Origin: Squalus acanthias
Taxonomy: Eukaryota
Direction: 5' to 3'
Length of the DNA stretch: 64,000 bases
Assembly (NCBI GenBank): GCA_030390025.1
Contig: CM059431.1
Location: 124,250,001 to 124,314,000 of the forward strand
Position numbers and translations under genes: made by a program. This document shows positions 429 to 38,861 of the stretch, piece after piece. Below the pieces are notes generated by a model. That model was not told the origin of the DNA. It saw only the letters and a program-made list of their open reading frames with translations, and did not search any database. The first letter of the stretch is position 1, and every line of letters starts with the position of its first letter.

Positions 429-2029
429 TGTAGAATTCGCAATTATCGCGATTTCATTTTAATAAGGAGAAAACACAAGTTTCGTTCAAAACAGCTTTTA
501 TTTCAACGGAATGCTGTCAGGTTTAAATTAGACACAAGCAGCCTGTAAAATGGCCGCCGCACCGCGTGACAGAACATTCGAGACTTTTCGGCAGGCAGAC
601 AAGATGGCGTTCCAATAAACATTTTTGCAGGATCGATAACGATTCAGCACAGTGAAGACATTACACAGGACATTATGGGTTTACAGTATAAACATCGATA
701 CTGGAATCGGTCTCCCAGGTACAAAGGAAAGCCATCAAGGGCCCATCCAAAGGACATTAATATGTAAACTCCCAACGGCTCTACGATGAGAGAGCCGTTA
801 GCAGGTAGTTATACAGGACACTTGGAAGCCCCAAACCCCTCCAGGGGGAACACCGACCGATTTAACAATGGGAGAAGTATTAGCAGGTACTCAAACATTC
901 AGGAGTAGCCCCGAAACCCATTAAAGACAGAGATCACCCTTACAGGACTTTTTGGGCGCCAAACCTTAAACAAAAGAATGGACATTATAGTTGGGCGGGA
1001 AACGGAAGAACTGTGCACTATAATTGCAGGCCCAAACCGTCCATTCTGTCTCTTGACTCTTGATTCTTGCTCCTGCCTCGTGTTCGTGACTCTTGCCGCT
1101 TGCTGCTGTTATCATCGTGGCTGCTCCTGGGTAAAAGACTGTTGCAAAGACCTATGTTGGTAGCTGGCAGCGGAACCGAAGGCCCGGGATGAGATGAGAT
1201 GAGATGAGATGAGATGAGAGGAGAAGAGAAGAAGACCTTATCCATCGCCACGGTCAGTAAATCCCGACCGCGCCTGTAGGTCGATCAGCCAAGTCTTCTT
1301 GACAGGAAGTTCTCTTCTTTAACAAAACATATTGCATCGATGATAACTGGACTGTGCAAACACATCGTATCAGCGATATTGACAACGGTGCTCCACCATA
1401 CCCTGTATCCAACCAACAGAGGTCTTCACTACAGCGGACGGTCCAGCCGACTGACCGAGCAGCAGAAGCAGTAAACAAGTGGGACCAGGAGATCTCCTGA
1501 CCAACACGTGGGTGCTGCGGTGAAAAACATCCGATCAGCTATTCGGGATTTCTCCGAGTTATTACGAGTGGTGAGCATGAGTCTCGGGATCCTACGAAGC
1601 TAGTTTTAGGATAGTTATTGATAGGGGAGGGTTGAAAGTTTAAGGATATTTGTAATGTGTGCCCTATTTACGTTGTGCTGGTCGTTCCTCGTTTCCCTAA
1701 GAGTGATTATAACTGTTTGTAAGATTGTACTGTCATTCATCTGTGCATATGACATGTATTTCATAATTTTAAGTATCATGCAATAAAGATTTTCCATTTC
1801 GTACCGTTCAAACCAAGTCTACATGAGTTTTATCTCCATTACTGCTCTCGCATCTAAGTCCAGTGTCTAGAACCGTAAGGGAGAGTGATTCGAACCACTC
1901 ACAGGGGTGTCTAGTGTTCCCAGACTGGCTGGAGACCAGGCCTAGACCCGCACTGACATACAGGCTGCACAGAGCCGCGTGAACCTCACAGGCCACGAGA
2001 CACGCAGGGTCAGGAGAGTATCCCTTACA
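429..2029 (+). repeat. 5' LTR of provirus A (1601 bp)
   Basis: Starts TGTAGAATTCGC, ends TATCCCTTACA. Repeated at 8068-9668 (offset 7639) with identical ORF-track translations. AATAAA at 1782-1787; (GAGAT)n at ~1187-1217. Confidence 0.97.
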
Positions 2030-2033
2030 GAAA

Positions 2034-3845
2034 ATGGCGACCGCGGCACGAGACTGGCAGCGAGAGGGTAGTGTGTTAGATTTTGGAATGACTGTACGAA
2101 ATGTTATGCAGGAAAAGATAGCGGATTACGTGTTTGGAAAGGTTAATCTAACGAAAAAGTGGATAAGCGAACTGTTAGCGGATAAGAGCCCACTAGAGGC
2201 AGCTGAAAGGTGGACGGATAGTAAGGAGCATAAAAAGGCAGTTGAGAAAGCAGTCTGGCTTATGTGCTACAAAAGGCAGGTCCAGATTTCTAACCAGACC
2301 AATACAGCGCTAACCGCTCGAATCAAGCAGTTAGAGGAGGAAATGGAGGAGAAGGTTTCTGGAGGGGAGGTGCTCATTAAGAGTTTAAATGAGTTACGCC
2401 AGGAAAGCCAGGAAGTCTCCAGCTACCTTAAAACAAGGGTAGAGTATCTCGAGTGCCAGATCACTGAAGCAAAATTAAACGAGAATAGGATGAAGGAAAG
2501 ATGTAACCGTCAAGCTGCCCAGATAAGAACTCAAGAAGAGAGCTTAATGGGGGTTAGGTCGGCGTATAAGTTGGCCCTTGAGGATAAGTTTCAGGGAGCC
2601 GACCATAGCGCCTGCGAAAAAGAGATAGAGAGCCTCAAAAAGGCCGTGAATAATGCGAACGGCATGGTGTGCCTTATTAATCCGTCGGCACGCCAGCCGC
2701 TAGTAAATGAGAGATTTAGAAATTCCCCACCAAGTAAAGCAGAAGAGGTAGTAGCCACTGCGCCCTCCGCGCCACCCAGCTATTCAGAAACCTGGGTTAG
2801 GGAGGAAGCAACGGAAGAAGCGAAAGAGCCCGTTGAAAAAGAGGTAGAAAAGGGATCGTTGTATCCAGTAACGGGGATTAAAAGGGGCCCAAGCAGAAAC
2901 GGTGGGGAAGAACCGGGGGATCTCCTCGGACAGCTGGTGTTGCCTCACAGTTCACATCAGCTGAGGGCCATGATAAACCACGTAAGGAAGCTGACCGAGA
3001 TAGACGACCCTTCCGTACATTTTAGGGAAGTTGAGCAAGCCGCAGCCATCAACGGCTGCGATGATGGGGAGACAGCAAAAATGCTGCTGTTCTCGTTAGA
3101 TAGCTCGGTCCTTCAGTGTCTCTCAGGCGATAGCAAGAGGGGAAACAAAAGTTATGAGGAATTGAAAAATGAGGTCCTAGAAGTAGTGGGAGCGAACGAC
3201 GGAGGTCCGTTTGCTAGAGTGGGACAGACAGTGCAGATGGAGGGAGAACCCCCGAAGGTTTTTGCCGACAGGCTGTGGCCAGTATATGAGCGCAGCTGTC
3301 TAGGTGCGCCCGAGCGCGAAGATGTGGAAGGCGCCGCTTTAATTCATTGGCTTAGGTGCATAATAGCCAACAGTTTACCAGCCGTTAGAGAGCAGGCAAA
3401 AGCCTGGTTCGATCCCAATGACCTCAACCTTACGGAAGAGTCGGTCTTGAATCGACTCACGTTAGGTTACCGTAACATAAGGGGTATGGCAACACGTCCC
3501 TTTAAGGGAAGAGTACATGAGGTACGACCCGCAGCCCCGGCTCAAAGAGAGTGGCATCAGGAGGGTAATCGCGCCCCACCGGCAAGCAATGCCTGTTACG
3601 GGTGTGGGAAGACAGGGCACTGGCGCAAGCACTGCAGGAACCCTTGGAAGGATTCCAAGGATAAGAATCCCGCGGTCCGAGCCCAGGCGCCTGTCCCGGC
3701 TAAGGAAGCAAAGGTACCCACCTCTCCCGAAGACCTCGAAGCAGTGTTAGGAGTCATGCGCAAGATGGTTTTAAATGCGCGTGGACAGGTGGCGGTCGCA
3801 ACCGGCCCCGTAGGTGCCGCAGGACCGTCTAATAGTACCCAATGA
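2034..3845 (+). CDS. gag: Gag (603 aa): N-terminal coiled coil, PSAPPSY late domain, capsid-like region, CCHC zinc knuckle
   Basis: Intact ORF directly after the LTR; CYGCGKTGHWRKHC at 3594-3635; about 98% aa identity to 35401-37212. Confidence 0.93.
   Translation: MATAARDWQREGSVLDFGMTVRNVMQEKIADYVFGKVNLTKKWISELLADKSPLEAAERWTDSKEHKKAVEKAVWLMCYKRQVQISNQTNTALTARIKQLEEEMEEKVSGGEVLIKSLNELRQESQEVSSYLKTRVEYLECQITEAKLNENRMKERCNRQAAQIRTQEESLMGVRSAYKLALEDKFQGADHSACEKEIESLKKAVNNANGMVCLINPSARQPLVNERFRNSPPSKAEEVVATAPSAPPSYSETWVREEATEEAKEPVEKEVEKGSLYPVTGIKRGPSRNGGEEPGDLLGQLVLPHSSHQLRAMINHVRKLTEIDDPSVHFREVEQAAAINGCDDGETAKMLLFSLDSSVLQCLSGDSKRGNKSYEELKNEVLEVVGANDGGPFARVGQTVQMEGEPPKVFADRLWPVYERSCLGAPEREDVEGAALIHWLRCIIANSLPAVREQAKAWFDPNDLNLTEESVLNRLTLGYRNIRGMATRPFKGRVHEVRPAAPAQREWHQEGNRAPPASNACYGCGKTGHWRKHCRNPWKDSKDKNPAVRAQAPVPAKEAKVPTSPEDLEAVLGVMRKMVLNARGQVAVATGPVGAAGPSNSTQ
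2035..2052 (+). promoter_or_regulatory. Primer-binding site, probably tRNA-Arg(UCG), overlapping the gag start codon
   Basis: TGGCGACCGCGGCA begins after a 5-nt gap (GAAAA) following the LTR. The consensus with copy B (TGGCGACCGCGGCAGGAC) matches the complement of the vertebrate tRNA-Arg-TCG 3' end as I recall it; not checked by search. Confidence 0.75.
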
Positions 3846-5006
3846 CTAGAGCCCACGCAGCCTGCCTACCTGTGTCCTTTTAAAAGACACGCACAGGAGG
3901 GGGTCTGCGGTGAGGAGGCCAGGTTAAAAGAGCAGGCCTTGCGGGAGGAGAACGCCCGCTTAATAGAGAAAATAGATGGGCTGGAAGGGCAGCTTAGAGA
4001 GCAGACCCTGCGGGAGGAGAACGCCCGATCAATGGGAAAGTTAGACGTGCTCAGGCTAGAAGAGCAGCTTAGAGAGATAAAAGCAGCCTACAGGGTAGCC
4101 AAAAGCAGGGAGTATGAGTATTTAAAACAGGATAGAAATCTGCAGCCTCCAGCAGGTGAGATTTCACAGAAACAAGCAGGGGCGGTGGCCTGTCTTAAGG
4201 GAGGGGCCAGACCTGCGAGTGGGGAAGCACAGCCCCAGGTAGGACCACAAGGCACACAGGCAGGCATAGCAGCTTGCATCAGGGGAAGGGACATCCCGGA
4301 CGATCATGCAGCGTTTTTCTGGAGTTGGGGGTTAGATGACGAGGACCCCAGGGTACCCTGGTCAGATGAGGATAGTGCAGATGAGCATAGTGATGATGAC
4401 GGGTGGTTTCACAGGAACGGTCTGGAAGGATTGGGGCCGCTAGGTAGAGATCCATACGGGGTGGACACACAAGCTGCAGGTCCCGACAGCAGGAGGAAGG
4501 AGCTAGAGGAGGCCGGGCCAGCCGCTATGTGGTTCCCAGAGGTGTGGCCGCCCGCTTTGAACGTCCAGTCCTCGGGGGAGGCAGAGTTCGCGAGTGAAGG
4601 GCCGCCTGCTGGGCCGAGCAGGGCGGGGCCCCGAACTGCCAGCCCCGAGGTTAGGGAGGAGGAGTCAGCGGAGGCGGGGCTGGCGCCTGTGATGGAACCC
4701 CAGGTCATCCCGTTGAAGGTCTCGGGACCCGGTCCGTCCGTCACGGAGCCCCCGCCCATAGCAATTCCCCGTAGGTCAAGCAGAGTACCCCAGCCCAGGA
4801 AGACGTGGTCAGGTCCACAGGCTGCCCCAGGGCGTAAGTTTCAGGTTAAGATAACCCGGGTAGAGACAGGCCACATCGAGGCAGTAACAGGCTGCGGCAG
4901 ATCAGAGGAAAGGGTCAGCGCAGCAACAGGCTGCGGCAAATCAGAGGGAAGGGTCAGTGCCCTCCCACCGTCGGGAAGAGCTCGCAGCAGCCTTCTCAGG
5001 ATTTAA
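3846..5006 (+). CDS. ORF X: in-frame continuation past the gag UGA. First ~10 Pol residues, then a ~115-aa Gag-like coiled coil, then the Pol/IN C-terminal tail (predicted 990-aa Gag-X readthrough product)
   Basis: Open and in frame with gag (3939-2034 is divisible by 3; no stop in 3846-3938). The C-terminal ~260 aa align with the end of copy B Pol. No PR, RT, RH or IN motifs. Confidence 0.8.
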   Translation, partial: LEPTQPAYLCPFKRHAQEGVCGEEARLKEQALREENARLIEKIDGLEGQLREQTLREENARSMGKLDVLRLEEQLREIKAAYRVAKSREYEYLKQDRNLQPPAGEISQKQAGAVACLKGGARPASGEAQPQVGPQGTQAGIAACIRGRDIPDDHAAFFWSWGLDDEDPRVPWSDEDSADEHSDDDGWFHRNGLEGLGPLGRDPYGVDTQAAGPDSRRKELEEAGPAAMWFPEVWPPALNVQSSGEAEFASEGPPAGPSRAGPRTASPEVREEESAEAGLAPVMEPQVIPLKVSGPGPSVTEPPPIAIPRRSSRVPQPRKTWSGPQAAPGRKFQVKITRVETGHIEAVTGCGRSEERVSAATGCGKSEGRVSALPPSGRARSSLLRI

Positions 5007-5288: not shown

Positions 5289-7640
5289 ATGGAACGACTT
5301 CTAGTTTTGCTCGTGGCAATCGGATGTGGATTGGCCTATCGGGGCCTCACCAAGGATGTCGTGGTGTTTGGATGTTCCGGGGACACGGCCCCCATCGCGG
5401 TGGATGGGACCGGGAGACGGAAGGCAGAAGGGACCAGCACCTATTTCCACAAGGGAAGGTGGCCAGGATGGCTGGGAACGAACTCAACGGAGTATTCCAG
5501 CACATCGGGGTTCGCCTACAAAGAGACTTCTTTAATGTGCCCCAAAGTACGGATCATCGCACCCAGGATCAGCGTCACCGTCGGCAAACGGATTTGTTTG
5601 ACTTGCAGTGGGAATGTCCCATTGAGCCGATGGTGGTGGCTGCGAAAGCTGAGCAAAACTATGAGGAACTCTTCGGTCGAGTGGGAGCGACTGGGTAATA
5701 ATACCCATCGGACAATTACGGGGACAGATGGACAAGTGAAAGTCTGTTGGGACAAATGGTGGGAACCAGATGAGGGGATTTATGTTTGTATGTGGGGGTC
5801 AAAGTACGTTTGCCCCAAAGGCATCTCCATATTCTTTATTAACCAGTGGCAGGATAACGGACAGGGGATGAGGTGGGATGCGAGCACCAGGGGGTGCGGA
5901 GCCCCATTCTCCCCGATCCCAGTAAATGCCACTGAGCTCATTACGCGCCCACGCAAAGCCCCGCCCACGATTCCGGTAGTTCTAACTGAGGAAGAAGGGT
6001 GCCCTAAAACTAGTAAGGGACCCGGGAACGGTTTGGTACTGGTCCCCACAGACCAGATACTATTTCAGGGAGTGCATTACGCGGTGGCCTCGGTGATTTT
6101 AAATCTCACTGAGGTACGGTTACCAGAGTGGTGCCCCAAAAAGACGGAACAGTTGTACCAGGTCCTGTTGACCAAGATGTTCAGGCAGTTTTACGAGTTC
6201 GATTTCGCGGAAATTGATAAGACAAGTTTATACACCGCACCGCAGGAAGTTTTGGATCAAGTTGGGAGGCAAAGAAGGGGTTTGGTGAACGATGCGTTCA
6301 CTGCTTTTAACACAGGGACATCTGTGGTCAACGCTCTAGACAGTGTGGAGCTGCAGACCCAGATTAATGGTTTAAAAACACAGTTAAAGGATATTCTCAC
6401 GGATGAGAATAAAGTGGTAGGGTCGGGTCTGCACGAGGACCAAGCCATGACACTACACTTAAAAGAGATTATAGCAGAGCTGGAGAAACATGCGCGTACG
6501 GTAAATGCCCTGATTAGGGAAGATCGGAATGCATCCGATCAAGCTGCGCAGAACGAGGTGTGCGTGCTTTACGGGGCGTGGTTACTGGGCGAGGGCCGCA
6601 GTAATTTGGAGGATTTAAAACAAGGTTTGGTCCCGTCCTGGATAAGTAACAAACACCTGCGGGCGCTCCACCCTTTTCAGAATGCATTAAGTCCGTGCCA
6701 GCTCAGGCTAGCTTCAGAAGCTTACCCAGTCCCCGTGGACTGCGGACGTTCAAACCATACTATTATGGGAATAGTATTACGCATGCCGGTTTTGGGCAAC
6801 ACAGCAAAGCCCGCCCCGGTGTATCGGGTAGAGAACATTGGTGTCATTCAGGGGGGAGCCCACATTCGTTATGCAGCGGTTCCACCTTACGTCATCCGCT
6901 GGGAGCAAACGATGACAGGTACAGATCTCTCTGGTTGTCGTGGCAGGGGAGCACACATAATACTGTGCCCCCAGCACTTGAATGCCTTTTTAACACCACA
7001 GTGCGGGTTCAGAACGGCTGGCGCCAAGTCCATGAATTGCACCATGGAGGCAATGGCACAAGATCATGTGCCTCCGCAGGTAGCATACATCGGGGGTGGA
7101 ACATATTGTGTTACCACTGCAGCGCAACACTACCAGCATGGAAACCGTAGCCGGTGTCCGGTGAGTGACAGCAGTTTCTGTTTTAAACCCAGGGCTGAAG
7201 TTCAAGTAGCACAACAGCGAATTATCCCAATCCCTGAACCATCCACTGTTCACCTCACAGTAAAAGAGAATTTTACCGACTTGCAGCGTTTTGTCGCACA
7301 TTTTGGGTACCTCATTCCCCCTCTCCCCGAGCATTTAACCAAACTTCTGAAAGCCGTCGCGGTGTCACAAAAGCATTTCTATACTTTAGAACAGAAAACC
7401 GTCGAGATAGGTACAGACATTTTGGACATAGTGGTTCCACCGTGGTGGAATCTGTTCACGAATATTGAAGTGCCCTCATGGGTCAGAATAGCCTCCCACA
7501 TTTTAGTCGTCTGTCAAGTGTTTATTGTAGTATACCTTTTGTTTATACATTGTAAAAGAGACAAGCGCCTCACCAAGCATGAGAACACGGGAGAGTGGCG
7601 AGAACGTTACGTGCGCGTGCACGATGAGAGCGCAGTGTAA
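5289..7640 (+). CDS. env: Env-like class I fusion glycoprotein (783 aa): signal peptide, Ig-like domain, furin site RQRR, heptad repeat, Cys-rich region, TM, cytoplasmic tail
   Basis: Hydrophobic N-terminus; RQRR|GLVNDAFTAF at 6267-6278 followed by heptads; several NxS/T sites; TM ILVVCQVFIVVYLLFI; position before the 3' LTR; candidate acceptor ...tctgatcacag at 5275. Confidence 0.9.
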   Translation: MERLLVLLVAIGCGLAYRGLTKDVVVFGCSGDTAPIAVDGTGRRKAEGTSTYFHKGRWPGWLGTNSTEYSSTSGFAYKETSLMCPKVRIIAPRISVTVGKRICLTCSGNVPLSRWWWLRKLSKTMRNSSVEWERLGNNTHRTITGTDGQVKVCWDKWWEPDEGIYVCMWGSKYVCPKGISIFFINQWQDNGQGMRWDASTRGCGAPFSPIPVNATELITRPRKAPPTIPVVLTEEEGCPKTSKGPGNGLVLVPTDQILFQGVHYAVASVILNLTEVRLPEWCPKKTEQLYQVLLTKMFRQFYEFDFAEIDKTSLYTAPQEVLDQVGRQRRGLVNDAFTAFNTGTSVVNALDSVELQTQINGLKTQLKDILTDENKVVGSGLHEDQAMTLHLKEIIAELEKHARTVNALIREDRNASDQAAQNEVCVLYGAWLLGEGRSNLEDLKQGLVPSWISNKHLRALHPFQNALSPCQLRLASEAYPVPVDCGRSNHTIMGIVLRMPVLGNTAKPAPVYRVENIGVIQGGAHIRYAAVPPYVIRWEQTMTGTDLSGCRGRGAHIILCPQHLNAFLTPQCGFRTAGAKSMNCTMEAMAQDHVPPQVAYIGGGTYCVTTAAQHYQHGNRSRCPVSDSSFCFKPRAEVQVAQQRIIPIPEPSTVHLTVKENFTDLQRFVAHFGYLIPPLPEHLTKLLKAVAVSQKHFYTLEQKTVEIGTDILDIVVPPWWNLFTNIEVPSWVRIASHILVVCQVFIVVYLLFIHCKRDKRLTKHENTGEWRERYVRVHDESAV

Positions 7641-8067: not shown

Positions 8068-9668
8068 TGTAGAATTCGCAATTATCGCGATTTCATTTTA
8101 ATAAGGAGAAAACACAAGTTTCGTTCAAAACAGCTTTTATTTCAACGGAATGCTGTCAGGTTTAAATTAGACACAAGCAGCCTGTAAAATGGCCGCCGCA
8201 CCGCGTGACAGAACATTCGAGACTTTTCGGCAGGCAGACAAGATGGCGTTCCAATAAACATTTTTGCAGGATCGATAACGATTCAGCACAGTGAAGACAT
8301 TACACAGGACATTATGGGTTTACAGTATAAACATCGATACTGGAATCGGTCTCCCAGGTACAAAGGAAAGCCATCAAGGGCCCATCCAAAGGACATTAAT
8401 ATGTAAACTCCCAACGGCTCTACGATGAGAGAGCCGTTAGCAGGTAGTTATACAGGACACTTGGAAGCCCCAAACCCCTCCAGGGGGAACACCGACCGAT
8501 TTAACAATGGGAGAAGTATTAGCAGGTACTCAAACATTCAGGAGTAGCCCCGAAACCCATTAAAGACAGAGATCACCCTTACAGGACTTTTTGGGCGCCA
8601 AACCTTAAACAAAAGAATGGACATTATAGTTGGGCGGGAAACGGAAGAACTGTGCACTATAATTGCAGGCCCAAACCGTCCATTCTGTCTCTTGACTCTT
8701 GATTCTTGCTCCTGCCTCGTGTTCGTGACTCTTGCCGCTTGCTGCTGTTATCATCGTGGCTGCTCCTGGGTAAAAGACTGTTGCAAAGACCTATGTTGGT
8801 AGCTGGCAGCGGAACCGAAGGCCCGGGATGAGATGAGATGAGATGAGATGAGATGAGAGGAGAAGAGAAGAAGACCTTATCCATCGCCACGGTCAGTAAA
8901 TCCCGACCGCGCCTGTAGGTCGATCAGCCAAGTCTTCTTGACAGGAAGTTCTCTTCTTTAACAAAACATATTGCATCGATGATAACTGGACTGTGCAAAC
9001 ACATCGTATCAGCGATATTGACAACGGTGCTCCACCATACCCTGTATCCAACCAACAGAGGTCTTCACTACAGCGGACGGTCCAGCCGACTGACCGAGCA
9101 GCAGAAGCAGTAAACAAGTGGGACCAGGAGATCTCCTGACCAACACGTGGGTGCTGCGGTGAAAAACATCCGATCAGCTATTCGGGATTTCTCCGAGTTA
9201 TTACGAGTGGTGAGCATGAGTCTCGGGATCCTACGAAGCTAGTTTTAGGATAGTTATTGATAGGGGAGGGTTGAAAGTTTAAGGATATTTGTAATGTGTG
9301 CCCTATTTACGTTGTGCTGGTCGTTCCTCGTTTCCCTAAGAGTGATTATAACTGTTTGTAAGATTGTACTGTCATTCATCTGTGCATATGACATGTATTT
9401 CATAATTTTAAGTATCATGCAATAAAGATTTTCCATTTCGTACCGTTCAAACCAAGTCTACATGAGTTTTATCTCCATTACTGCTCTCGCATCTAAGTCC
9501 AGTGTCTAGAACCGTAAGGGAGAGTGATTCGAACCACTCACAGGGGTGTCTAGTGTTCCCAGACTGGCTGGAGACCAGGCCTAGACCCGCACTGACATAC
9601 AGGCTGCACAGAGCCGCGTGAACCTCACAGGCCACGAGACACGCAGGGTCAGGAGAGTATCCCTTACA
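8068..9668 (+). repeat. 3' LTR of provirus A (1601 bp)
   Basis: Direct repeat of 429-2029, followed by TSD ATGG. Confidence 0.97.
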
Positions 9669-9888
9669 ATGGGAATCCCCTTTTTGATTGGTTGGACCGG
9701 CCCACGTGATCCCAGGGACGCTTCCGAACCGTGCGCGCCCCTGGGATACGTGGGCTTTACGCGGGCGTACGCCTGCAGGCCCAGGACCGCCAGAGTCCGA
9801 AGATATGGAGGCACCAGGTAGGTGTGTACTTTTTTTGTGGATTGGAGGCGTTCGCCCGCGGGAAGTCTCCGACCACAATTTCCAGTCC
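9669..9888. mobile_element. Right part of the MITE interrupted by provirus A
   Basis: Shares ggcccacgtgatcccagggacgctt with 16231-16256; ends with TIR-like ...caatttccagtcc followed by ATT. Confidence 0.65.
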
Positions 9889-26170: not shown

Positions 26171-27815
26171 TGTAAGGGATTCTCTCCTGACCCTGCGTGT
26201 CTCGTAGCCTGTGAGATTCACGCGGCTCTGTGCAGCCTGTATGTCAGTGCGGGTCTAGGCCTGGTCTCCAGCCAGTCTGGGAACACTAGACACACCTGTG
26301 AGTGGTTCGAATCACTCTCCCTTACGGTTCTAGACACTGGACTTAGATGCGAGAGCAGTAATGGAGATAAAACTCATGTAGACTTGGTTTGAACGGTACG
26401 AAATGGAAAATCTTTATTGCATGATACTTAAAATTATGAAATACATGTCATACGCACAGATTAATGACAGTACAATCTTACAAACGGTTATAATCACTCT
26501 TAGGGAAACGAGGAACGAACGGCACAACGTAAATAGGGCACACATTACCAATATCCTTAATCTTTACACCCTCCCCTATCAATATCTATCCTAAACTAGC
26601 TTCGTAGGATCTCGAGACTCATGCTCACCACTCGTAATAACTCGGAGAAATCCCGAATAGCTGATCGGATGTTTTTTACCGCAGCACCCACGTGTTGGTC
26701 AGGAGATCTCCTGGTCCCACTTGTTTACTGCTTCTGCTGCTCGGCCAGTCGGCTGGACCGTCCGCTGTAGTGAAGACCTCTGTTGGTTGACTTCACAGTT
26801 TAGTTGAGGAACACCGTTGTCAATATCACTGATACGATGTGTTTACACAGTCCAGTTATCATTGATGCAATATGTCTTGTTAAAGAAGAAAACTTCCTGT
26901 CGAGAAGACTTGGCTGATCGACCTACAGGCGCGGTCGGGATTTACTGACCGTGGCGATGGATAAGGTCTTCTTCTCTTCTCCTCTCATCTCATCTCATCT
27001 CATCTCGGGCCTTTGGTTCCGCTGCCAGTTACCAACATAGGTCTTCTTTACGCGACACGAGGTAGATCCGAACGGATCAGAAAGTTCAACAGTCTTTTAC
27101 ACAGGAGCAGCCACGAGGTTACGAATCGACCGGATAAAACACAGGAGCAGCCACGATGATAACAGCAGCAAGCGAGCAAGAGGCAAGAGTCAAGAGAGCG
27201 AATGGACGGTTTGGGGCCTGCAATTATAGTGCGAAAATCTTCCGTTTCCCGCCCAACTATAATGTCCATTCTTTTGTTTAAGGTTTGGCGCCCAAATGTC
27301 TTGTGTGGGTGATCTCCGTCCTTAATGGGTTTCGGGGCTACTCATGAATGTTTGAGTACCTGTTAATACTTCTCCCATTGTTAAATCGGTCGGTGTTCCC
27401 CCTGGAGGGGTTTGGGGCTTCCAAGTGTCCTGTATAACTACCTGCTAACGGCTCTCTCATCGTAGAGCCGTTGGGAGTTTGCATATTAATGTCCTTTGGA
27501 TGGGCCCTTGATGGCTTTCCTTTGTACCTGGGAGACCGATTCCAGTATCGATGTTTATACTGTAAACCCATAATATCTCGTGTATTATCTTCACTGTGCT
27601 GAATCGTTATCGATCCTGCAAAAATGTTTAATGGAACGCCATCTTGTCTGCCTGTTGAAAAGTCTAGAATGTTCTGTCACGAGGTGCGGCGGCCATTTTA
27701 CAGGCTGCTTGTGTCCAATTTAAACCTGACAGCATTCTGCTGAAATAAACGCTGTTTGAACGAAACTTTGTGTTTTCTCCTTATTAATCAAATCGTGATA
27801 ATTGCGAATTCTACA
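26171..27815 (-). repeat. 3' LTR of provirus B (1645 bp)
   Basis: Direct repeat of 37217-38861 (offset 11046); identical ORF-track translations. Confidence 0.97.
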
Positions 27816-28373
27816 GTCCCTCCTGTTGATGCGAATAACTCCGCTTATCGTATCAAAACTCTCAGTGGTGAGCAATCTTATCTCGATTTCACTCCGAATC
27901 CAGTAAATTAATCCCATAAATTTTAACTTAACTAGGGTCTCTGTGTCGTCCTTATTTCCCAAGAAAATCACATTTTATATCACCATAGGCATCATTTGCC
28001 CTTAAACTTACACCACTTGTTTTCCTTCCCGGCGTAACCAGGCCGATACCTCACGCATCACCTGTATATTTGTCTTTTATTCAGGGAAAGGAAAAACAAA
28101 ACCCAAAACCAAACAATCAACACCATCACCAAAATAAAACAAATCCCAACTCTTAAACATATCGAGTTTCCAACGTATTTACAATGAGTACAAACTTCCG
28201 CGGCGCACGTGGCGAGCGGGAGTGACGCCATTTTCCTATTACACGGTACTCTCGTCGTGCACGCGCACGTAACGTTCTCGCCACTCTCCCGTGTTCTCAT
28301 GCTTGGTGAGGCGCTTGTCTCTTTTACAATGTATGAACAATAGGTATACTACAATAAACACTTGACAGACGAC

Positions 28374-30590
28374 TCAAATGTGGGAGGCTATTCTGACCCA
28401 TGAGGGTACTTCAATATTAGTGAACAGATTCCACCACGGTGGAACCACTATGTCCAAAATGTCTGTTCCAATTTCGACGGTTTTCTGTTCTAATGTATAA
28501 AAATGCTTTTGTGACACCGCGACGGCTTTCAGAAGTTTGGTTAAATGCTCAGGGAGAGGGGGAATGAGGTATCCAAAATGCGCGACAAATCGCTGCAAGT
28601 CGGTGAAATTCTCTTTTACTGTGAGATGAACAGTGGATGGTTCAGGGATTGGGATAATTCGCTGTTGTGCTACTTGAACTTCAGCCCTGGGTTTAAAACA
28701 GAAACTGCTGTCACTCACCGGACACCGGCTACGGTTTCCATGCTGGTAGTGTTGCGCTGCAGTGGTAACACAATATGTTCCACCCCCGATGTATGCTACC
28801 TGCGGAGGCACATGATCTTGTGCCATTGCCTCCATGGTGCAATTCATGGACTTGGCGCCAGCCGTTCTGAACCCGCACTGTGGTGTTAAAAAGGCATTCA
28901 AGTGCTGGGGGCACAGTATTATGTGTGCTCCCCTGCCACGACAACCAGAGAGATCTGTACCTGTCATCGTTTGCTCCCAGCGGATGACGTAAGGTGGAAC
29001 CGCTGCATAACGAATGTGGGCTCCCCCCTGAATGACACCAATGTTCTCTACCCGATACACCGGGGCGGGCTTTGCTGTGTTGCCCAAAACCGGCATGCGT
29101 AATACTATTCCCATAATAGTATGGTTTGAACGTCCGCAGTCCACGGGGACTGGGTAAGCTTCTGAAGCTAGCCTGAGCTGGCACGGACTTAATGCGTTCT
29201 GAAAAGGGTGAAGCGCCCGTAGGTGTTTGTTACTTATCCAGGACGGAACCAAACCTTGTTTTAAATCCTCCAAATTACTGCGGCCCTCGCCCAGTAACCA
29301 CGCCCCGTAAAGCACGCACACCTCGTTCTGCGCAGCTTGATCGGATGCATTCCGATCTTCCCTGATCAGGGCATTTACCGTACGCGCATGTTTCTCCAGC
29401 TCTGCTATAATTTCCTTTAAATGGAGAGTCATGGCTTGGTCCTCATGCAGACCCGACCCTACCACTTTATTCTCATCTGTTAGAATGTCTTTTAACTGTG
29501 TTTTTAAACCATTAATCTGGGTCTGCAGCTCCACACTGTCTAGAGCGTTGACCACAGATGTCCCTGTGTTAAAAGCAGTGAACGCATCGTTCACCAAACC
29601 CCTTCTTTGCCTCCCTACTTGATCCAAAACTTCCTGCGGTGCGGTATACAAACTTGTCTTATCAATTTCTGCAAAATCAAACTCGTAAAATTGTCTGAAC
29701 ATCTTGGTCAACAGGACCTGATACAACTGTTCCGTCTTTTTGGGGCACCACTCTGGTAACCGTACCTCAGTGAGATTTAAAATCACCGAGGCCACCGCGT
29801 AATGTACCCCCTGAAATAGTATCTGGTCTGTGGGGACCAGTACCAAACCGTTCCCGGGTCCCTTACTAGTTTTAGGGCACCCTTCTTCCTCAGTTAGAAC
29901 CACCGGAATTGTGGGCGGGGCTTTGCGTGGGCGCGTAATGAGTTCAGTGGCATTTACTGGGATCGGGGAGAATGGGGCTCCGCACCCCCTGGTGCTCGCA
30001 TCCCACCTCATCCCCTGTCCGTTATCCTGCCACTGATTAATAAAAAATATGGAGATGCCTTTGGGGCAAACGTACTTTGACCCCCACATACAAACATAAA
30101 TCCCCTCATCCGGTTCCCACCATTTGTCCCAACAGACTTTCACTTGTCCGTTTGTCCCCGTAATTGTCCGATGGGTATTATTACCCAGTCGTTCCCACTC
30201 GACCGAAGAGTTCCTCATAGTTTTGCTCAGCTTTCGCAGCCACCACCATCGGCTCAATGGGACATCCCCACTACAGGTCAAACAAATCCGTTTGCCGACG
30301 GTGACGCTGATCCTGGGTGCGATGATCCGTACTTTGGGGCACATTAAAGAAGTCTCCTTGTAGGCGAACCCCGATGTGCTGGAATACTCCGTTGAGTTCG
30401 TTCCCAGCCATCCTGGCCACCTTCCCTTGTGGAAATAGGTGCTGGTCCCCTCTGCCTTCCGTCTTCCGGTCCCATCCACCGCGATGGGGGCCGTGTCCCC
30501 GGAACATCCAAACACCACGACATCCTTGGTGTGGCCTCGATAGGCCAATCCACATCCGATTGCCACGAGCAATACTAGAATTCGTTCCAT
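28374..30590 (-). CDS. env: Env (738 aa), truncated by TTA>TGA at the start of the TM helix; the downstream frame stays intact to ...RYVRVHDESTV*
   Basis: Differs from copy A Env at only 4 aa that I could find (L4I, L20H, N109D, D147N); CAC ATT TGA GTC here versus CAC ATT TTA GTC in A. Confidence 0.9.
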   Translation of the reverse strand: MERILVLLVAIGCGLAYRGHTKDVVVFGCSGDTAPIAVDGTGRRKAEGTSTYFHKGRWPGWLGTNSTEYSSTSGFAYKETSLMCPKVRIIAPRISVTVGKRICLTCSGDVPLSRWWWLRKLSKTMRNSSVEWERLGNNTHRTITGTNGQVKVCWDKWWEPDEGIYVCMWGSKYVCPKGISIFFINQWQDNGQGMRWDASTRGCGAPFSPIPVNATELITRPRKAPPTIPVVLTEEEGCPKTSKGPGNGLVLVPTDQILFQGVHYAVASVILNLTEVRLPEWCPKKTEQLYQVLLTKMFRQFYEFDFAEIDKTSLYTAPQEVLDQVGRQRRGLVNDAFTAFNTGTSVVNALDSVELQTQINGLKTQLKDILTDENKVVGSGLHEDQAMTLHLKEIIAELEKHARTVNALIREDRNASDQAAQNEVCVLYGAWLLGEGRSNLEDLKQGLVPSWISNKHLRALHPFQNALSPCQLRLASEAYPVPVDCGRSNHTIMGIVLRMPVLGNTAKPAPVYRVENIGVIQGGAHIRYAAVPPYVIRWEQTMTGTDLSGCRGRGAHIILCPQHLNAFLTPQCGFRTAGAKSMNCTMEAMAQDHVPPQVAYIGGGTYCVTTAAQHYQHGNRSRCPVSDSSFCFKPRAEVQVAQQRIIPIPEPSTVHLTVKENFTDLQRFVAHFGYLIPPLPEHLTKLLKAVAVSQKHFYTLEQKTVEIGTDILDIVVPPWWNLFTNIEVPSWVRIASHI

Positions 30591-30876: not shown

Positions 30877-33800
30877 TTAAATTCTGAGAAGGCTGCTGCG
30901 AGCTCTTCCCGACGGTGGGAGGGCACTGACCCTTCCCTCTGATCTGCCGCAGCCTGTTGCTGCGCTGACCCTTTCCTCTGATCTGCCGCAGCCTGTTACT
31001 GCTTCGATGTGGCCTGTCTCTACCCGGGTTATCTTAACCTGAAACTTACGCCTTGGGGCAGTCTGGGGACATGACCACATCCTCCTGGGCTGGGGTTCTC
31101 TACTAGACCTACGGGGAGTTGCTATGGGCGGGGGTTCCGTGACGGACGGACCGGGTTCCGAGACCTCCAACGGGACGACCTGGGGTTCCATCACAGTCGC
31201 CGACTCCGCCTCCGCTGACTCCGCCTCCCTAACCCCGGGGCTGGCATTTCGTGGCTCCGCCCTGCTCGGCCCAGCAGGCGGCCCTTCACTCGTGATCTCT
31301 GCCTCCCCTGAGGACTGGACGTTCAAAGCGGGCGGCCACACCTCTGGGAACCACATTGGTACTCTCTGTGCTCCTATAGCGGCTGGCCCCGCCTCCTCTA
31401 GCTCCTCCCTCCTGTACTCGGGACCTGCAGCTTGTGTGTCCACCCCGTGTGGATCTCTACCTATCGGCCCCAATCCTCCCAGACCGTTCCTCCGGAACCA
31501 CCCGTCATCATCACTATGCTCATCTGCACTATCCTCATCTGACCAGGGTACCCTGGGTTCTTCGTCATCTAACCCCCAACTCCAGAAAAACGCTGCATGA
31601 TCGTCCGGGATGTCCCTTCCCCTGATGCAAGCTGCTACGCCTGCCTGTGTGCCTTGTGGTCCTACCTGGGGCTGTGTTTTCCCATTGGCGGGATTTACCC
31701 CTGTAGTTTTCCCCTGCGCACCCGGCTGGTACAGTTTGCATTGGTTTATGTGGAACCACTTAGTGCGCCGAGGTACTTTTACGGCGTAAACCATGGGACT
31801 CGCCTTGTCTACAATGTTGTAGGGTCCCATATACAGTGGTTCCAGACTCCCTACTCTGGCGTAGTTTCTGACCATGACCTGGTCTCCTACTTCCCACTCC
31901 CGCGTTTTGCGGGGTTCCAGCAACAAGCGATTGCCCTGATGCTGCCTTCCCATGTTCCCAGCCGCCTGCTCATAAACTTGCTTCAGGCGCTCCAAGAGAG
32001 TTTGGGCGAACTTGTCCCTGCTGATCTCTTGAAGCTGACCCTCAGTGAGCACCGGGGCTAGCACATGGGTGGGGGTTCGCATGAGCCTGCCGGTCATTAC
32101 CTCGTGCGGGGAGTACCCCGTACTTTTTGACTGACTGGCCCGGACCCCCATGAGGACTAAAGGCAGAACTTCCGCCCATTTTTGGGGCGAGTTCCTAGTC
32201 TCTTTCCTCAATTTCTCCTTCAGGGTCCGGTTCATACGTTCAACAATCCCGGATGACTGGGGATTGTGTGCTACGTGCCACTTCCCTTCAATGCCCAAAA
32301 GCATGAGGGTGTTCTGCATCACCTGGCCGGTGAAATGACTCCCTTGGTCTGACTCCACGAAACGGGGGAGTCCCCACCGCGAGAACACTTCCCGGACCAA
32401 GATTTTTGCTGTACCCAGTGCCGTAGCTGTTCGACAAGGGAAGGCTTCCACCCACTTGGAAAACACATCCACCAGGACGAGGCAGTACTTATAACCTCCC
32501 TGGGTGGTGGGCAGGGGTCCTATATAGTCGATCTGTATCGACTGCCATGGTCCCTCTACCCTTCTTACGTGTCCCATGGGCACCTTCCTTTTCTGGGGGT
32601 CTGGGTTGTTTGCAGCGCACACAAGACAGTTAGCGCAGAACTCGCGGACTTGTTCCCTGAGCCCTGGCCACCATCCCGCTTGCTCTACCCGTTGCCAGGT
32701 AACCTCGGGCCCGGGGTGCCCTGCCCCTGGTCCCTCGTGAGCCAACTGGAGGAATTCCCTCCTGTGCTGCTGCGGCACAACCCACTGCTCCCCGCGGAAC
32801 AGCATGCCTTCCTTAACTGAGAGGGTTGCCGTACTGTACGGACCTTCTACCTGCCTCCCCTCAGCAATCGTTTTTAGGACTGCTTTTAGGGCGGGATCCT
32901 GGGCTTGGACGGTCTTAAGGTCTAGGGGCAATGCTACCCTGGTGTTCCCGGTATTCCCGTCCCCACCTCGGACCGCTGCTATGGGTCCGGTCCTATAGGG
33001 GTTCCAGAAAATACCGTCTCGGGCACCCTCCCTGGCTAGCGCATCCGCCTGCCGGTTGCCCTCCCCACGGGGCTCTGTGGAGGAGTGAGCTTTCACCTTA
33101 TGGATGAAAATCTCCCCTTCCTCCCCTACTGCTGCTGCTAAGATCTTTTCCAGCAAGGGCTTCACCGTTAAAGGTCGCCCGTCCGCGGAGGTGTATCCGC
33201 GGCGGGACCAAATGGCCAGGTATTCCGTACACGAATTGCAGGTGAACATACTGTCCGAGCAAATCGTGTATGGGGTTGGGAAAATGTCTGGGTGGGTCAC
33301 CACGTACACCACGGCAGACAGCTCAGCTTGCTGCGCGCTCATGGTGCTAGGGAGCTTGATCGCCAGGGCAAGGTCTGCCGCAGGGTCATAAACTCCACAC
33401 CCTGTGAGTCGCTCGCCAGCAGACACTGTGCTAGACCCATCAACATAAATCTCGCGCCCAGTGGGATGTATCCCGGCCCGTAAACCTATGTTGACGTCCC
33501 ACACCCCTTCCACCGAACACCGGTGGGCTGTACCGGGGTATACCAAATTGGCCGCAAGCCTGGGCTCGCAAAGACCTTTTACTCTAAGATCCAACTGGGA
33601 GAGAAGAAGGGTCCAACGCGCAATGCGTGCGCTGCTTACGGTCCCATCTTTAATCCTCCCATCCAGAAGCATCTTAGTTGGTGTGTGATGTGTGAGGAGA
33701 GTGATGGGAGAGAGCCCTGTGAAGATCGCTGATCTTTTCACAGCCCAATGCGTGGCTAAAAGGTGCCTTTCGCAATTGGAGAAACTTCTCTCCACATCCG

Positions 33801-35400
33801 CTAATACCCTGGATGAATAGACAACCGGCCTCAGCTTGCCGTGACGCTCTTGGAGCAGCACGGCGCTTAAGCTGTCTCCGCTGGCAGCTACCTCCAGGAA
33901 AAACTCCTTCCCCCCATCTATGGCCCCTAAGGCTGGCGCGGTCTGCAGATCCCTTTTTAACTTCTCGAAGGCTGCTTGGCAGCCCTCGTCCCAAAGCCAC
34001 TCCACCCCCTTATGGAGGAGTCGGAGGAGCGGCGCCGCTGTGGCCGCATAATCTTCGATAAAATCCCTGCAGTAACCGGTCAGTCCCAAGAAGGACCTCA
34101 CACCCCTTACGTTGTTGGGAATCGGTAATTCTTGCACCGACTCCCTCCTTGCTTTGTCTATGGCTCTTTCCCCAGCGCGTAGGGTCAGTCCCAGGAATTT
34201 TACTTCCTGCTGACCGATACGTGCTTTCTTTGGGTTTACTTTAAAACCCTTTCTCGCTAACAGCTCCAATAACTCGTCCAGTAGTGGTCCGTGCTCCTCC
34301 CTTGAGTCCGTAAATAGGAGCAAATCATCCACATACTGTACTATCTGATTGGGCTGACTAAACTCCTTTAAACTTCCTGCCATACACTGATGAAAAATAC
34401 TGGGGCTATTGTGGAAACCCTGTGGCAAACAGTTCCACGTGTACTGTTGCCCTTTAAACGTAAAGGCAAACTTGTACTGGTCCTCTCGCCGCAGCGGGAT
34501 GGACCAAAAACCGTTCGAGATATCCAGCACCGTGAACGTGGTCGCGGACGCTGGGATGCTCCCTATTAGGTCAGCAACTGCTGCTACTGTGGGCGCGCAG
34601 GCGGGAATGTTACTGTTAAGGACTCTGTAGTCCACCGTGGCTCTCCACGAATTATCCGGCTTCCTAACCGGCCATAATGGGGAGTTCACGTGTGTGGCTA
34701 TCGGCCTCAACACGCCCTGCTGCACCAAGGAAGACATTGCTGCCTCCATATCGGGTTCTGCTTCTTTGGGGAAGTTATACTGCTTTTGGGGTCGGGTCAT
34801 GGGGTCCCCATCTACGCTGACCTCAAACCCGACCACCCTCCCACAATCGTGCTTGTGGGTTGCAAACGCGTGCATATTATCTGTCACGTACGTTTGCATG
34901 TCCGTTGGGACATCTGCGACCATAAGCCTGAGGTCGTAGCCTCCGGATGGCTGTACGGTACACAGGACCCCTGTTTCTTCCTCCCCTTGAATTACCATTA
35001 CCTCGCCTTTTTCACCTTTAGCCCCCCAGAGACAGTGATTTCTGAGGTCCACGAGGATCCCGTGTCCCGCTAGGAGATCGGACCCGAGAATACCTCTTCC
35101 ACCCCCCTTTTGCCATGCCATCAGGATACACTTCCACTTAAGGCGAAGTGTCCCTAAACGAATGGATAGCGGGAGGGAAAACGTGCCAGCCTGTTCTTTC
35201 CCTGTGAACCCTGCTAGCGTGAATGGGACCTTGGTAGATAGCGGCGAGTCAAAAGGGTCATCTGTATGGATTATGGTGCAAGAAGCTCCCGTGTCCAACA
35301 AATAACTGCCCTTCTGTTTCTCTACCTCCATCTCCACCACAGGTCGCCTCCACGCATCATAGCTAAGCGGACACAGGTAGACGGGCTGTGCTGGTTCTAG
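30877..35400 (-). CDS. pol: Pol: protease, RT, degenerate RNase H (tether), active RNase H, integrase, long low-complexity tail; in frame with gag after a single UGA
   Basis: LLDTGA (~35290); LPQGF and YVDD (~34330); FFLEVAAS...RPVVYSSR; IYVDGS/AQQAEL/CSDS/HKVKAH/GNRQAD; HHCC; QIDYIG/SDQG/VERMN; GPY. Confidence 0.96.
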   Translation of the reverse strand, partial: LEPAQPVYLCPLSYDAWRRPVVEMEVEKQKGSYLLDTGASCTIIHTDDPFDSPLSTKVPFTLAGFTGKEQAGTFSLPLSIRLGTLRLKWKCILMAWQKGGGRGILGSDLLAGHGILVDLRNHCLWGAKGEKGEVMVIQGEEETGVLCTVQPSGGYDLRLMVADVPTDMQTYVTDNMHAFATHKHDCGRVVGFEVSVDGDPMTRPQKQYNFPKEAEPDMEAAMSSLVQQGVLRPIATHVNSPLWPVRKPDNSWRATVDYRVLNSNIPACAPTVAAVADLIGSIPASATTFTVLDISNGFWSIPLRREDQYKFAFTFKGQQYTWNCLPQGFHNSPSIFHQCMAGSLKEFSQPNQIVQYVDDLLLFTDSREEHGPLLDELLELLARKGFKVNPKKARIGQQEVKFLGLTLRAGERAIDKARRESVQELPIPNNVRGVRSFLGLTGYCRDFIEDYAATAAPLLRLLHKGVEWLWDEGCQAAFEKLKRDLQTAPALGAIDGGKEFFLEVAASGDSLSAVLLQERHGKLRPVVYSSRVLADVERSFSNCERHLLATHWAVKRSAIFTGLSPITLLTHHTPTKMLLDGRIKDGTVSSARIARWTLLLSQLDLRVKGLCEPRLAANLVYPGTAHRCSVEGVWDVNIGLRAGIHPTGREIYVDGSSTVSAGERLTGCGVYDPAADLALAIKLPSTMSAQQAELSAVVYVVTHPDIFPTPYTICSDSMFTCNSCTEYLAIWSRRGYTSADGRPLTVKPLLEKILAAAVGEEGEIFIHKVKAHSSTEPRGEGNRQADALAREGARDGIFWNPYRTGPIAAVRGGDGNTGNTRVALPLDLKTVQAQDPALKAVLKTIAEGRQVEGPYSTATLSVKEGMLFRGEQWVVPQQHRREFLQLAHEGPGAGHPGPEVTWQRVEQAGWWPGLREQVREFCANCLVCAANNPDPQKRKVPMGHVRRVEGPWQSIQIDYIGPLPTTQGGYKYCLVLVDVFSKWVEAFPCRTATALGTAKILVREVFSRWGLPRFVESDQGSHFTGQVMQNTLMLLGIEGKWHVAHNPQSSGIVERMNRTLKEKLRKETRNSPQKWAEVLPLVLMGVRASQSKSTGYSPHEVMTGRLMRTPTHVLAPVLTEGQLQEISRDKFAQTLLERLKQVYEQAAGNMGRQHQGNRLLLEPRKTREWEVGDQVMVRNYARVGSLEPLYMGPYNIVDKASPMVYAVKVPRRTKWFHINQCKLYQPGAQGKTTGVNPANGKTQPQVGPQGTQAGVAACIRGRDIPDDHAAFFWSWGLDDEEPRVPWSDEDSADEHSDDDGWFRRNGLGGLGPIGRDPHGVDTQAAGPEYRREELEEAGPAAIGAQRVPMWFPEVWPPALNVQSSGEAEITSEGPPAGPSRAEPRNASPGVREAESAEAESATVMEPQVVPLEVSEPGPSVTEPPPIATPRRSSREPQPRRMWSCPQTAPRRKFQVKITRVETGHIEAVTGCGRSEERVSAATGCGRSEGRVSALPPSGRARSSLLRI

Positions 35401-37216: not shown

Positions 37217-38861
37217 TGTAAGGGATTCTCTCCTGACCCTGCGTGTCTCGTAGCCTGTGAGATTCACGCGGCTCTGTGCAGCCTGTATGTCAGTGCGGGT
37301 CTAGGCCTGGTCTCCAGCCAGTCTGGGAACACTAGACACACCTGTGAGTGGTTCGAATCACTCTCCCTTACGGTTCTAGACACTGGACTTAGATGCGAGA
37401 GCAGTAATGGAGATAAAACTCATGTAGACTTGGTTTGAACGGTACGAAATGGAAAATCTTTATTGCATGATACTTAAAATTATGAAATACATGTCATACG
37501 CACAGATTAATGACAGTACAATCTTACAAACGGTTATAATCACTCTTAGGGAAACGAGGAACGAACGGCACAACGTAAATAGGGCACACATTACCAATAT
37601 CCTTAATCTTTACACCCTCCCCTATCAATATCTATCCTAAACTAGCTTCGTAGGATCTCGAGACTCATGCTCACCACTCGTAATAACTCGGAGAAATCCC
37701 GAATAGCTGATCGGATGTTTTTTACCGCAGCACCCACGTGTTGGTCAGGAGATCTCCTGGTCCCACTTGTTTACTGCTTCTGCTGCTCGGCCAGTCGGCT
37801 GGACCGTCCGCTGTAGTGAAGACCTCTGTTGGTTGACTTCACAGTTTAGTTGAGGAACACCGTTGTCAATATCACTGATACGATGTGTTTACACAGTCCA
37901 GTTATCATTGATGCAATATGTCTTGTTAAAGAAGAAAACTTCCTGTCGAGAAGACTTGGCTGATCGACCTACAGGCGCGGTCGGGATTTACTGACCGTGG
38001 CGATGGATAAGGTCTTCTTCTCTTCTCCTCTCATCTCATCTCATCTCATCTCGGGCCTTTGGTTCCGCTGCCAGTTACCAACATAGGTCTTCTTTACGCG
38101 ACACGAGGTAGATCCGAACGGATCAGAAAGTTCAACAGTCTTTTACACAGGAGCAGCCACGAGGTTACGAATCGACCGGATAAAACACAGGAGCAGCCAC
38201 GATGATAACAGCAGCAAGCGAGCAAGAGGCAAGAGTCAAGAGAGCGAATGGACGGTTTGGGGCCTGCAATTATAGTGCGAAAATCTTCCGTTTCCCGCCC
38301 AACTATAATGTCCATTCTTTTGTTTAAGGTTTGGCGCCCAAATGTCTTGTGTGGGTGATCTCCGTCCTTAATGGGTTTCGGGGCTACTCATGAATGTTTG
38401 AGTACCTGTTAATACTTCTCCCATTGTTAAATCGGTCGGTGTTCCCCCTGGAGGGGTTTGGGGCTTCCAAGTGTCCTGTATAACTACCTGCTAACGGCTC
38501 TCTCATCGTAGAGCCGTTGGGAGTTTGCATATTAATGTCCTTTGGATGGGCCCTTGATGGCTTTCCTTTGTACCTGGGAGACCGATTCCAGTATCGATGT
38601 TTATACTGTAAACCCATAATATCTCGTGTATTATCTTCACTGTGCTGAATCGTTATCGATCCTGCAAAAATGTTTAATGGAACGCCATCTTGTCTGCCTG
38701 TTGAAAAGTCTAGAATGTTCTGTCACGAGGTGCGGCGGCCATTTTACAGGCTGCTTGTGTCCAATTTAAACCTGACAGCATTCTGCTGAAATAAACGCTG
38801 TTTGAACGAAACTTTGTGTTTTCTCCTTATTAATCAAATCGTGATAATTGCGAATTCTACA
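37217..38861 (-). repeat. 5' LTR of provirus B (1645 bp)
   Basis: Reverse complement of TGTAGAATTCGC...ATCCCTTACA; followed by TSD CTTT. Confidence 0.97.

Follow-up and report, generated by a model that had tools for sequence, protein, structure and literature searches.

The window analysed here, a 64,000-nucleotide (nt) stretch of the Squalus acanthias genome (GCA_030390025.1, contig CM059431.1, positions 124,250,001 to 124,314,000 of the forward strand), holds two related proviruses, A on the + strand and B on the - strand, the first of which carries an intact env gene (5289..7640, +). Taken together, our results make it quite probable that they belong to a very young, many-copy endogenous retrovirus (ERV), whose reverse transcriptase (RT) is likely of the grade of snakehead retrovirus (SnRV) and whose envelope protein (Env) is predicted to be of the paramyxovirus fusion protein (F) type, with a likely immunoglobulin (Ig)-like domain in front of the fusogen core.

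The env open reading frame (ORF) is intact, as stated in the original prediction, an earlier note made from the DNA sequence alone; it is free of internal stops and encodes 783 aa. Its other claims about the primary structure hold equally well: a furin-type site (RQRR) is found at aa 327-330, the post-cleavage subunit, estimated at about 450 aa, measures 453 aa, and the reported lack of CKS-17 and CX6CC motifs agrees with our finding that neither of the gamma-type transmembrane (TM) signatures sought, CX6CC and a QNR..LD motif resembling the immunosuppressive domain (ISD), occurs in the 783-aa sequence. The protein contains 23 Cys residues and 10 N-glycan sequons, and its hydropathy peaks are restricted to the TM segment (~734-753) and the putative signal peptide (aa 1-16; 5289..5336, +), which is placed on this basis. 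An N-terminal extension of ~220 aa (residues ~17-236), passed over in the earlier note, precedes the F core and is joined to it by a Pro/Thr-rich linker (5901..5996, +). Judged by sequence and model, the F2-like part of the N-subunit follows and reaches up to the RQRR site (5997..6278, +); the F1-like subunit (6279..7547, +) then comprises the fusion-peptide position (331-349), the helices of heptad repeat region A (HRA, 349-444), Cys-rich beta domains up to ~650, heptad repeat region B (HRB, 681-715) and the TM segment. The two heptad regions recognised earlier coincide with long helices at residues 349-444 and 681-715 of the predicted model.

Structure prediction points to an F-type fold. 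An AlphaFold2 (AF2) model of Env residues 231-730, built from a 33-row alignment, reached a predicted local distance difference test (pLDDT) value of 71. When it was compared with the PDB, Foldseek returned paramyxovirus or pneumovirus F proteins in 44 of the 44 matches listed, the best being F of human parainfluenza virus 3 (hPIV3; E 5.7e-12) and the TM-scores ranging from 0.40 to 0.46, and VIA-align likewise gave F in all 50 matches listed, with a best Z of 13.1 (root-mean-square deviation (rmsd) 8.6, 336 aligned) for the superposition of Env ~245-650 on hPIV3 F 26-432. ESM features of the protein also point to the F family (PF00523, score 0.93), and the 50 matches listed for BFVD are mostly F-type proteins of negative-strand viruses and baculovirus, among them the Env proteins of walleye epidermal hyperplasia virus 1 (WEHV1; E 3.4e-8) and feline foamy virus (5.5e-4); no gamma- or beta-type Env appears among the named matches (50 listed, three nameless). 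The predicted model shows the domains I-III with HRA and HRB that define F proteins, and the Env possesses neither the ISD and CX6CC motif nor the short TM subunit of gamma-type Envs. These four approaches agree with the proposed F-like architecture, as opposed to one made of surface (SU) and TM subunits, and we conclude that residues ~245-650 are predicted to adopt the fold of a paramyxovirus-F-type class I fusogen.

Several observations weigh against this assignment. Confidence in the AF2 model is low around the cleavage loop and the fusion peptide, TM-scores to F proteins are only 0.40-0.49 with large rmsd values, and no sequence or profile match of the Env to F was obtained in Pfam or the PDB. 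The structural expectation of the original prediction, F proteins as the best matches in the PDB, is borne out by searches with the model and not by those with the sequence or profile. The segment described there as fusion-peptide-like (331-349) is only mildly hydrophobic (Kyte-Doolittle value 0.51, rank 76 among 708 ectodomain windows).

If the predicted fold is correct, the Env shares with paramyxovirus and pneumovirus F proteins (PF00523; hPIV3 1ztm, respiratory syncytial virus 3rki, Newcastle disease virus 3maw) not only the fold of residues ~245-650, but also the F2/F1 layout, HRA and HRB and a cleavage site ahead of the fusion peptide. It differs from them by an identity of only 7-16%, its extra N-terminal domain and the fact that it is encoded by a retrovirus, whose provirus shows no evident separate gene for an HN, H or G attachment protein. 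Indeed, no separate attachment ORF was apparent on the + strand from env to the end of the 3' long terminal repeat (LTR), where no ATG-initiated ORF exceeds 61 aa.

The N-terminal extension probably contains a domain with an Ig fold (aa ~85-178; 5541..5822, +), although each line of support for it is weak. The segment displays the motifs of Ig domains, including a B-strand Cys (C106), a C-strand Trp (W115-117) and a D-x-G-x-Y-x-C motif (DEGIYVC, 161-167). The three top PDB sequence matches are the junctional adhesion molecule JAM and antibody light-chain variable (VL) domains (E about 1), the ESM matches listed are Ig proteins (0.84-0.85), with the ten best matches that have a family all sharing family or clan with the best one, and all 49 Foldseek matches listed for the N-terminal model look like Ig chains, none of them at E <=0.001. 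In Pfam, the E-values are 0.0085 (P0010), 0.012 and, for V-set, 0.045 in relatives. Other results speak against an Ig domain or limit its significance: Pfam Ig_3 matches the Env itself with an E-value of just 0.43, the N-terminal AF2 model (pLDDT 38) is too poor to settle the fold, in comparisons among distant relatives, their N-terminal Ig-like segments mostly score no higher than shuffled sequences, and in one shark relative (P0012) the N-terminus is of another, Cys-rich kind. Searches of the PDB with Ig profiles gave nothing significant; in the A3 profile, zinc fingers from a chimeric gene model were present as contaminants.

Because no separate attachment gene is evident, we propose that the extension may bind the target cell, and we hold the chance that it acts in attachment to be slightly less than even. 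A probable Ig-like tip would offer a testable answer to the question of how an F protein can work without an HN, H or G partner. By analogy, and as suggested by the model, the Env would most likely be a furin-activated class I fusogen that works as paramyxovirus F does. It would be translated from a spliced mRNA, trimerise and be cut at RQRR to yield an N-subunit linked by disulfide bonds to the F1-like subunit. HRA would then extend, the peptide 331-349 would insert and HRB would fold back to form a six-helix bundle, with target-cell binding perhaps provided in cis by the Ig-like extension.

The original prediction further implied that the element is a lokiretrovirus, an identity that its RT does not bear out. 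The provirus RT scores 187 bits against Gag-Pol of murine leukemia virus (MLV) type, 182 against foamy virus and 127 against Ty3. Its sequence identity is 47-54% to frog, coelacanth and Logan proteins named 'NYNRIN-like', 44% to SnRV, 37-41% to gammaretroviruses, 36% to epsilonretroviruses, 34-37% to foamy viruses and 34-35% to all three Loki-type references. Compared with the alignments available in the supplements of PMC7947760 and PMC9040795, it has the motifs of the SnRV type and lacks those of Loki and Odin. A scan of viral contigs with this RT yielded a single locus (L046), which we take as SnRV, given that its RT fits the published SnRV row and its length of 10,688 nt fits the description available in PMC12193657; no locus was returned when the viral contigs were scanned with an epsilon-like shark Pol. 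The Loki-type references are three metagenome loci (L077-L079) whose RTs were matched by eye to published Loki rows, and the remaining reference labels rest on motifs, lengths and tree position.

In a phylogenetic tree of 43 of the 68 extracted RTs (the 25 rows omitted were mostly near-duplicates), the provirus RT groups with the frog and coelacanth set (support 94/92), and a 99/92 branch sets the Loki and Gypsy sequences apart from the set that includes it. Forcing it together with the Loki-type RTs was rejected (p 0.0047 in the approximately unbiased (AU) test), whereas its union with SnRV and three fish rows was not rejected (p 0.18), with members that were in part chosen after seeing the tree. 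It is thus likely, as far as RT sequences can tell, that the provirus belongs to the SnRV grade of canonical retroviruses and not to the lokiretroviruses. Two aspects count against this placement: its relation to SnRV appears as a polytomy and not as a resolved clade, and the references do not include Odin, ERV-L, ERV4, CmiERV or fish foamy-like (FLERV) elements.

The possibility that the element is nevertheless a lokiretrovirus, the first in a cartilaginous fish, and that its Env is the known Loki Env appears very improbable to us. It would account for the F-like Env, the dual RNase H and the name 'NYNRIN-like' carried by the nearest Pol homologues, all of which are Loki traits according to the available text of PMC7947760, and a similar P-x-G motif opens the F core of Loki Envs. 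However, a dual RNase H, seen in the Pol of copy B as PF17917/PF17919 followed by PF00075, is common to all retroviruses, and this reading is at odds with the RT motifs, the 34-35% identity and the rejected monophyly (p 0.005). Moreover, eight of 23 Loki Envs were compared, and the six that start at the signal peptide enter the F core directly, with no 220-aa extension; the other two are Loki-Ofa, with a stretch upstream of its signal peptide, and the partial Loki-Lch. The Env described here shares with Loki Env, as portrayed in PMC7947760, the signal peptide, furin-type site, fusion peptide, coiled coil, TM segment and F-like core, but is set apart from it by the ~220-aa extension with its probable Ig domain, a more polar fusion peptide and an RT outside the Loki group. 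Six cartilaginous-fish assemblies lack an asterisk in Table S2 of the same paper, which we take to mean that no Loki element was found in them. An exact search for a Loki RT motif in the S. acanthias genome gave no match, which does not show its absence.

How widely the F-like Env is distributed was assessed with a profile of its core. This profile matched the Env of SnRV (HH probability 90-93%, E about 1e-6) and that of a locus of the walleye dermal sarcoma virus (WDSV) type (L106; 94-97%), with scores of 62-65 for SnRV and epsilon Env as compared to 16-28 for shuffled targets. Two foamy Envs were matched weakly (34% and 78%) and none of six gamma-, beta-, delta- and lentiviral Envs at all (at most 2.1%; 3/3 gamma unmatched). 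Pairwise BLAST of the Env to SnRV Env was not significant. The likeness to SnRV (L046), whose primer binding site (PBS) is of the tRNA-Arg type, extends from this profile-homologous Env core to the RT motifs and the RT identity of 44%, a coiled coil in Gag, gag and pol in a single frame interrupted by a stop, and a tRNA-Arg-type PBS. Unlike SnRV, in which the Env frame comprises 1134 aa and its N-terminal part and tail are far longer, the family has an Env of 783 aa, a TGA-CTAG instead of a TAG-GGC stop context, no evident accessory ORF and, as its closest RTs (47-54%), the uncharacterised 'NYNRIN-like' proteins of frogs and coelacanth. The SnRV-related, clade Huo and class III ERVs dealt with in the available parts of PMC12193657 and PMC8922424 form the comparison group. 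As a separate observation, the SnRV Env shows an Ig-like motif close to its N-terminus.

The Envs of WEHV1 and L106 possess a homologous F-like core, although the walleye epsilonretroviruses differ by a much longer Env, a class I pol and a complex genome. Foamy Env, as described in the accessible text of PMC11468914, resembles the Env studied here in combining a paramyxovirus/pneumovirus F core with an extra binding module in the N-subunit. In foamy viruses, however, the receptor-binding domain forms an insertion immediately before the furin site, and the Env has a leader peptide, whereas the extra module of the S. acanthias Env precedes the F core and its RT is not of the foamy type.

These relationships bear on the origin of retroviral env genes. 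In the parts of their paper available to us, Wang and Han (PMC9040795) preferred an independent acquisition of env by Loki and canonical retroviruses, because Loki Env alone looked F-like. Foamy Env was later found to be F-like as well (Fernandez et al., 2024, PMC11468914), so that published F-likeness covers, in the text available, Loki Env (PMC7947760) and foamy Env (PMC11468914). As far as the accessible text of two further studies goes, epsilon Env has been assigned to neither the gamma nor the beta type (10.1101/2021.11.23.469661), and modelling of its SU did not succeed (10.1101/2021.11.05.467493); a literature search of partial coverage found no paper that describes the Env of SnRV or of epsilonretroviruses as F-like. 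The presence of F-like Envs in SnRV, the walleye epsilonretroviruses and the lineage described here would place this fold inside viruses of Orthoretrovirinae grade and, therefore, favour an ancestral Env of the F type; it would also classify epsilon Env. It is tempting to speculate that such an Env was ancestral to all Retroviridae and persists in Loki, foamy, epsilon and SnRV viruses as well as in the shark/amphibian lineage described here, which would still be amplifying, that the SU/TM Envs of gamma and beta type represent later replacements, and that the present lineage made F self-sufficient for entry by the addition of an exchangeable N-terminal Ig-like attachment domain, a scenario that we advance tentatively and regard as nearly as likely to be right as wrong.

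A separate acquisition of the F-like Env by the shark/amphibian lineage, with a lokiretrovirus or a negative-strand virus as a conceivable donor, instead of the retention of an ancestral Env, seems unlikely but deserves serious attention. Incongruence between env and pol is common in anamniote ERVs, according to the available part of 10.1101/2021.11.23.469661, and the top BFVD matches of the Env, lispivirus-type and baculovirus F proteins, rank above WEHV1 Env. By contrast, the profile of the Env core picks up the Envs of SnRV and epsilonretroviruses, yet no F protein in the PDB, and F-like Envs recur across Loki, foamy, SnRV and epsilon viruses as well as in this lineage.

The env gene has evolved under strong constraint. 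The copies in proviruses A and B (the latter at 28239..30590, -) are 97% identical and differ at 65 of 2352 nt, corresponding to 59 synonymous, five non-synonymous and one nonsense change (dS 0.11, dN 0.003, dN/dS 0.025; Fisher p 3e-31); for gag, dN/dS is 0.15. Purifying selection had been postulated from many synonymous and few amino acid changes, illustrated by a codon pair that indeed matches at aa 387 in both copies, and the pairwise dN/dS suggested as a check lies far from 1. The conservation of the two copies is thus confirmed, but the premature stop at codon 739 of copy B, at the start of the TM segment, had been overlooked.

A first look at the genome yielded 3936 candidates for env, 2152 for RT and 1483 for a segment specific to pol-less elements such as A, which are counts of candidates and not copy numbers. 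From 40 scored matches, we sampled the best 30 env loci, i.e. those closest to the env gene of A. An intact ORF was found in 28 of them, one had a stop and one an indel, a proportion that is inflated by their selection for closeness to an intact gene and in this respect overstates the case for integrity. Their distinct variants comprised 36 synonymous as opposed to 11 non-synonymous or stop changes (ratio about 0.10). Twenty-four of these loci bear pol and six are pol-less, and a full env is retained in all six of the latter. Copies A and B share an identical run of 570 bp, a length reached in none of 20000 random draws, which indicates that env moves between the pol-bearing and pol-less subfamilies, probably by template switching. 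Pol-less copies such as A would likely be copied by the enzymes of pol-bearing relatives and, in the process, likely exchange env with them.

The LTR pairs of both proviruses are identical (0 of 1601 and 0 of 1645 positions differ), so the family is young; recent infectious spread, as proposed in the original prediction, would be a reasonable reading. Selection on env is generally taken in the ERV literature as a sign of particle-mediated spread, and such spread, from cell to cell or by germline reinfection, is probably what the constraint on this env reflects. Alternatively, the constraint could stem from selection in a helper lineage or an exogenous one, whose env was then passed on by recombination. 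Taken further, the low dN/dS might be inherited from an exogenous phase or a few helpers, with the thousands of present elements having spread in germ cells without needing Env. This explanation, which we consider rather unlikely, fits with the loss of the pol enzymes from copy A, the stop in the env of copy B, the exchange of env between subfamilies and the short time for decay implied by identical LTRs. It is less easily reconciled with the predominance of synonymous variants even among near-identical young env copies, the retention of env in every sampled pol-less locus and the excess of env over RT candidates. It is hardly credible that env is a host-domesticated, syncytin-like gene under host selection: an intact ORF and a low dN/dS would be expected of such a gene, but this one lies within a provirus that has identical LTRs and is flanked by a target-site duplication, among thousands of near-identical candidates. 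Probable selection through particle-mediated spread thus remains our preferred explanation, and a young, intact and strongly selected Env represents a natural protein for structural studies and fusion assays.

Beyond S. acanthias, the nearest named homologues are those of a skate (74%) and sawshark (53-59%), with more distant ones in other sharks and frogs. Three shark gene models, P0003 (Niban1-like), P0004 (ZFP2-like) and P0039 (fbxo15), are chimeric and include pieces of this Env family; they probably represent artefacts of annotation or proviruses that have become exonised. In 14 sequencing runs from eight studies and seven organisms, half or more of the env words were present, with no RNA run among those listed. 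No env splice joint was seen in four of these 14 runs, all of them contigs, whose depth cannot rank genes. The occurrence of near-identical env words in seven organisms could mean that these are close relatives or that the virus has spread across species.

Both elements display the anatomy of retroviral proviruses, with TG..CA LTRs, target-site duplications, a tRNA-directed PBS and the order gag-pol-env. Provirus A is delimited by a 1601-bp 5' LTR (429..2029, +; TG...CA) and an identical 3' LTR (8068..9668, +), which is preceded by a short purine-rich tract, and flanked by the 4-bp target-site duplication ATGG (425-428 and 9669-9672). Its PBS (2035..2052, +) is complementary to host tRNA-Arg(TCG) at 16 of 18 bases and overlapped by the first in-frame ATG of gag, four bases past the LTR (2030-2052). 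The gag gene (2034..3845, +) encodes a coiled coil and a weak match to a zinc knuckle. The pol slot (3846..5006, +) lacks the enzyme domains and retains the non-enzymatic pol tail; this loss of nearly all of pol, including RT, RNase H and integrase, had escaped the earlier note. In place of the enzymes, there is a ~340-bp segment coding for a coiled coil (about 3878-4219, +), which contains an internal repeat of ~90 bp, marks a large pol-less subfamily and shows weak similarity to the Gag-like protein P0040 from a related element (E 1.5e-4).

Provirus B, on the - strand, has a 5' LTR (37217..38861, -) and an identical 3' LTR of 1645 bp (26171..27815, -), with the 4-bp target-site duplication CTTT. 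Its PBS (37194-37211, -) matches tRNA-Arg(TCG) at 17 of 18 bases. Besides gag (35401..37212, -), this provirus has a full pol gene (30877..35400, -) that encodes protease, RT, tether, RNase H, integrase and a non-enzymatic tail. This acidic, Pro-rich tail, which is kept in pol-less copies, extends ~270 aa beyond the integrase (30877-31690, -). In both proviruses, gag ends with TGA followed by CTAG, a strong readthrough context, and pol continues in the same frame (3843-3849, +; 35397-35403, -).

The window also contains an older LTR remnant (~14500-15990) that is about 77-81% similar to the LTR of this family and a DDE_Tnp_4 transposase fragment (48257-48772; E 3e-9). Across the genome, 424 matches to the tRNA-Arg(TCG) pattern were found, and tRNA-Arg(TCG) genes form large tandem arrays with a period of ~1.62 kb at ~39.0-42.2 Mb of C26 (L032-L035).

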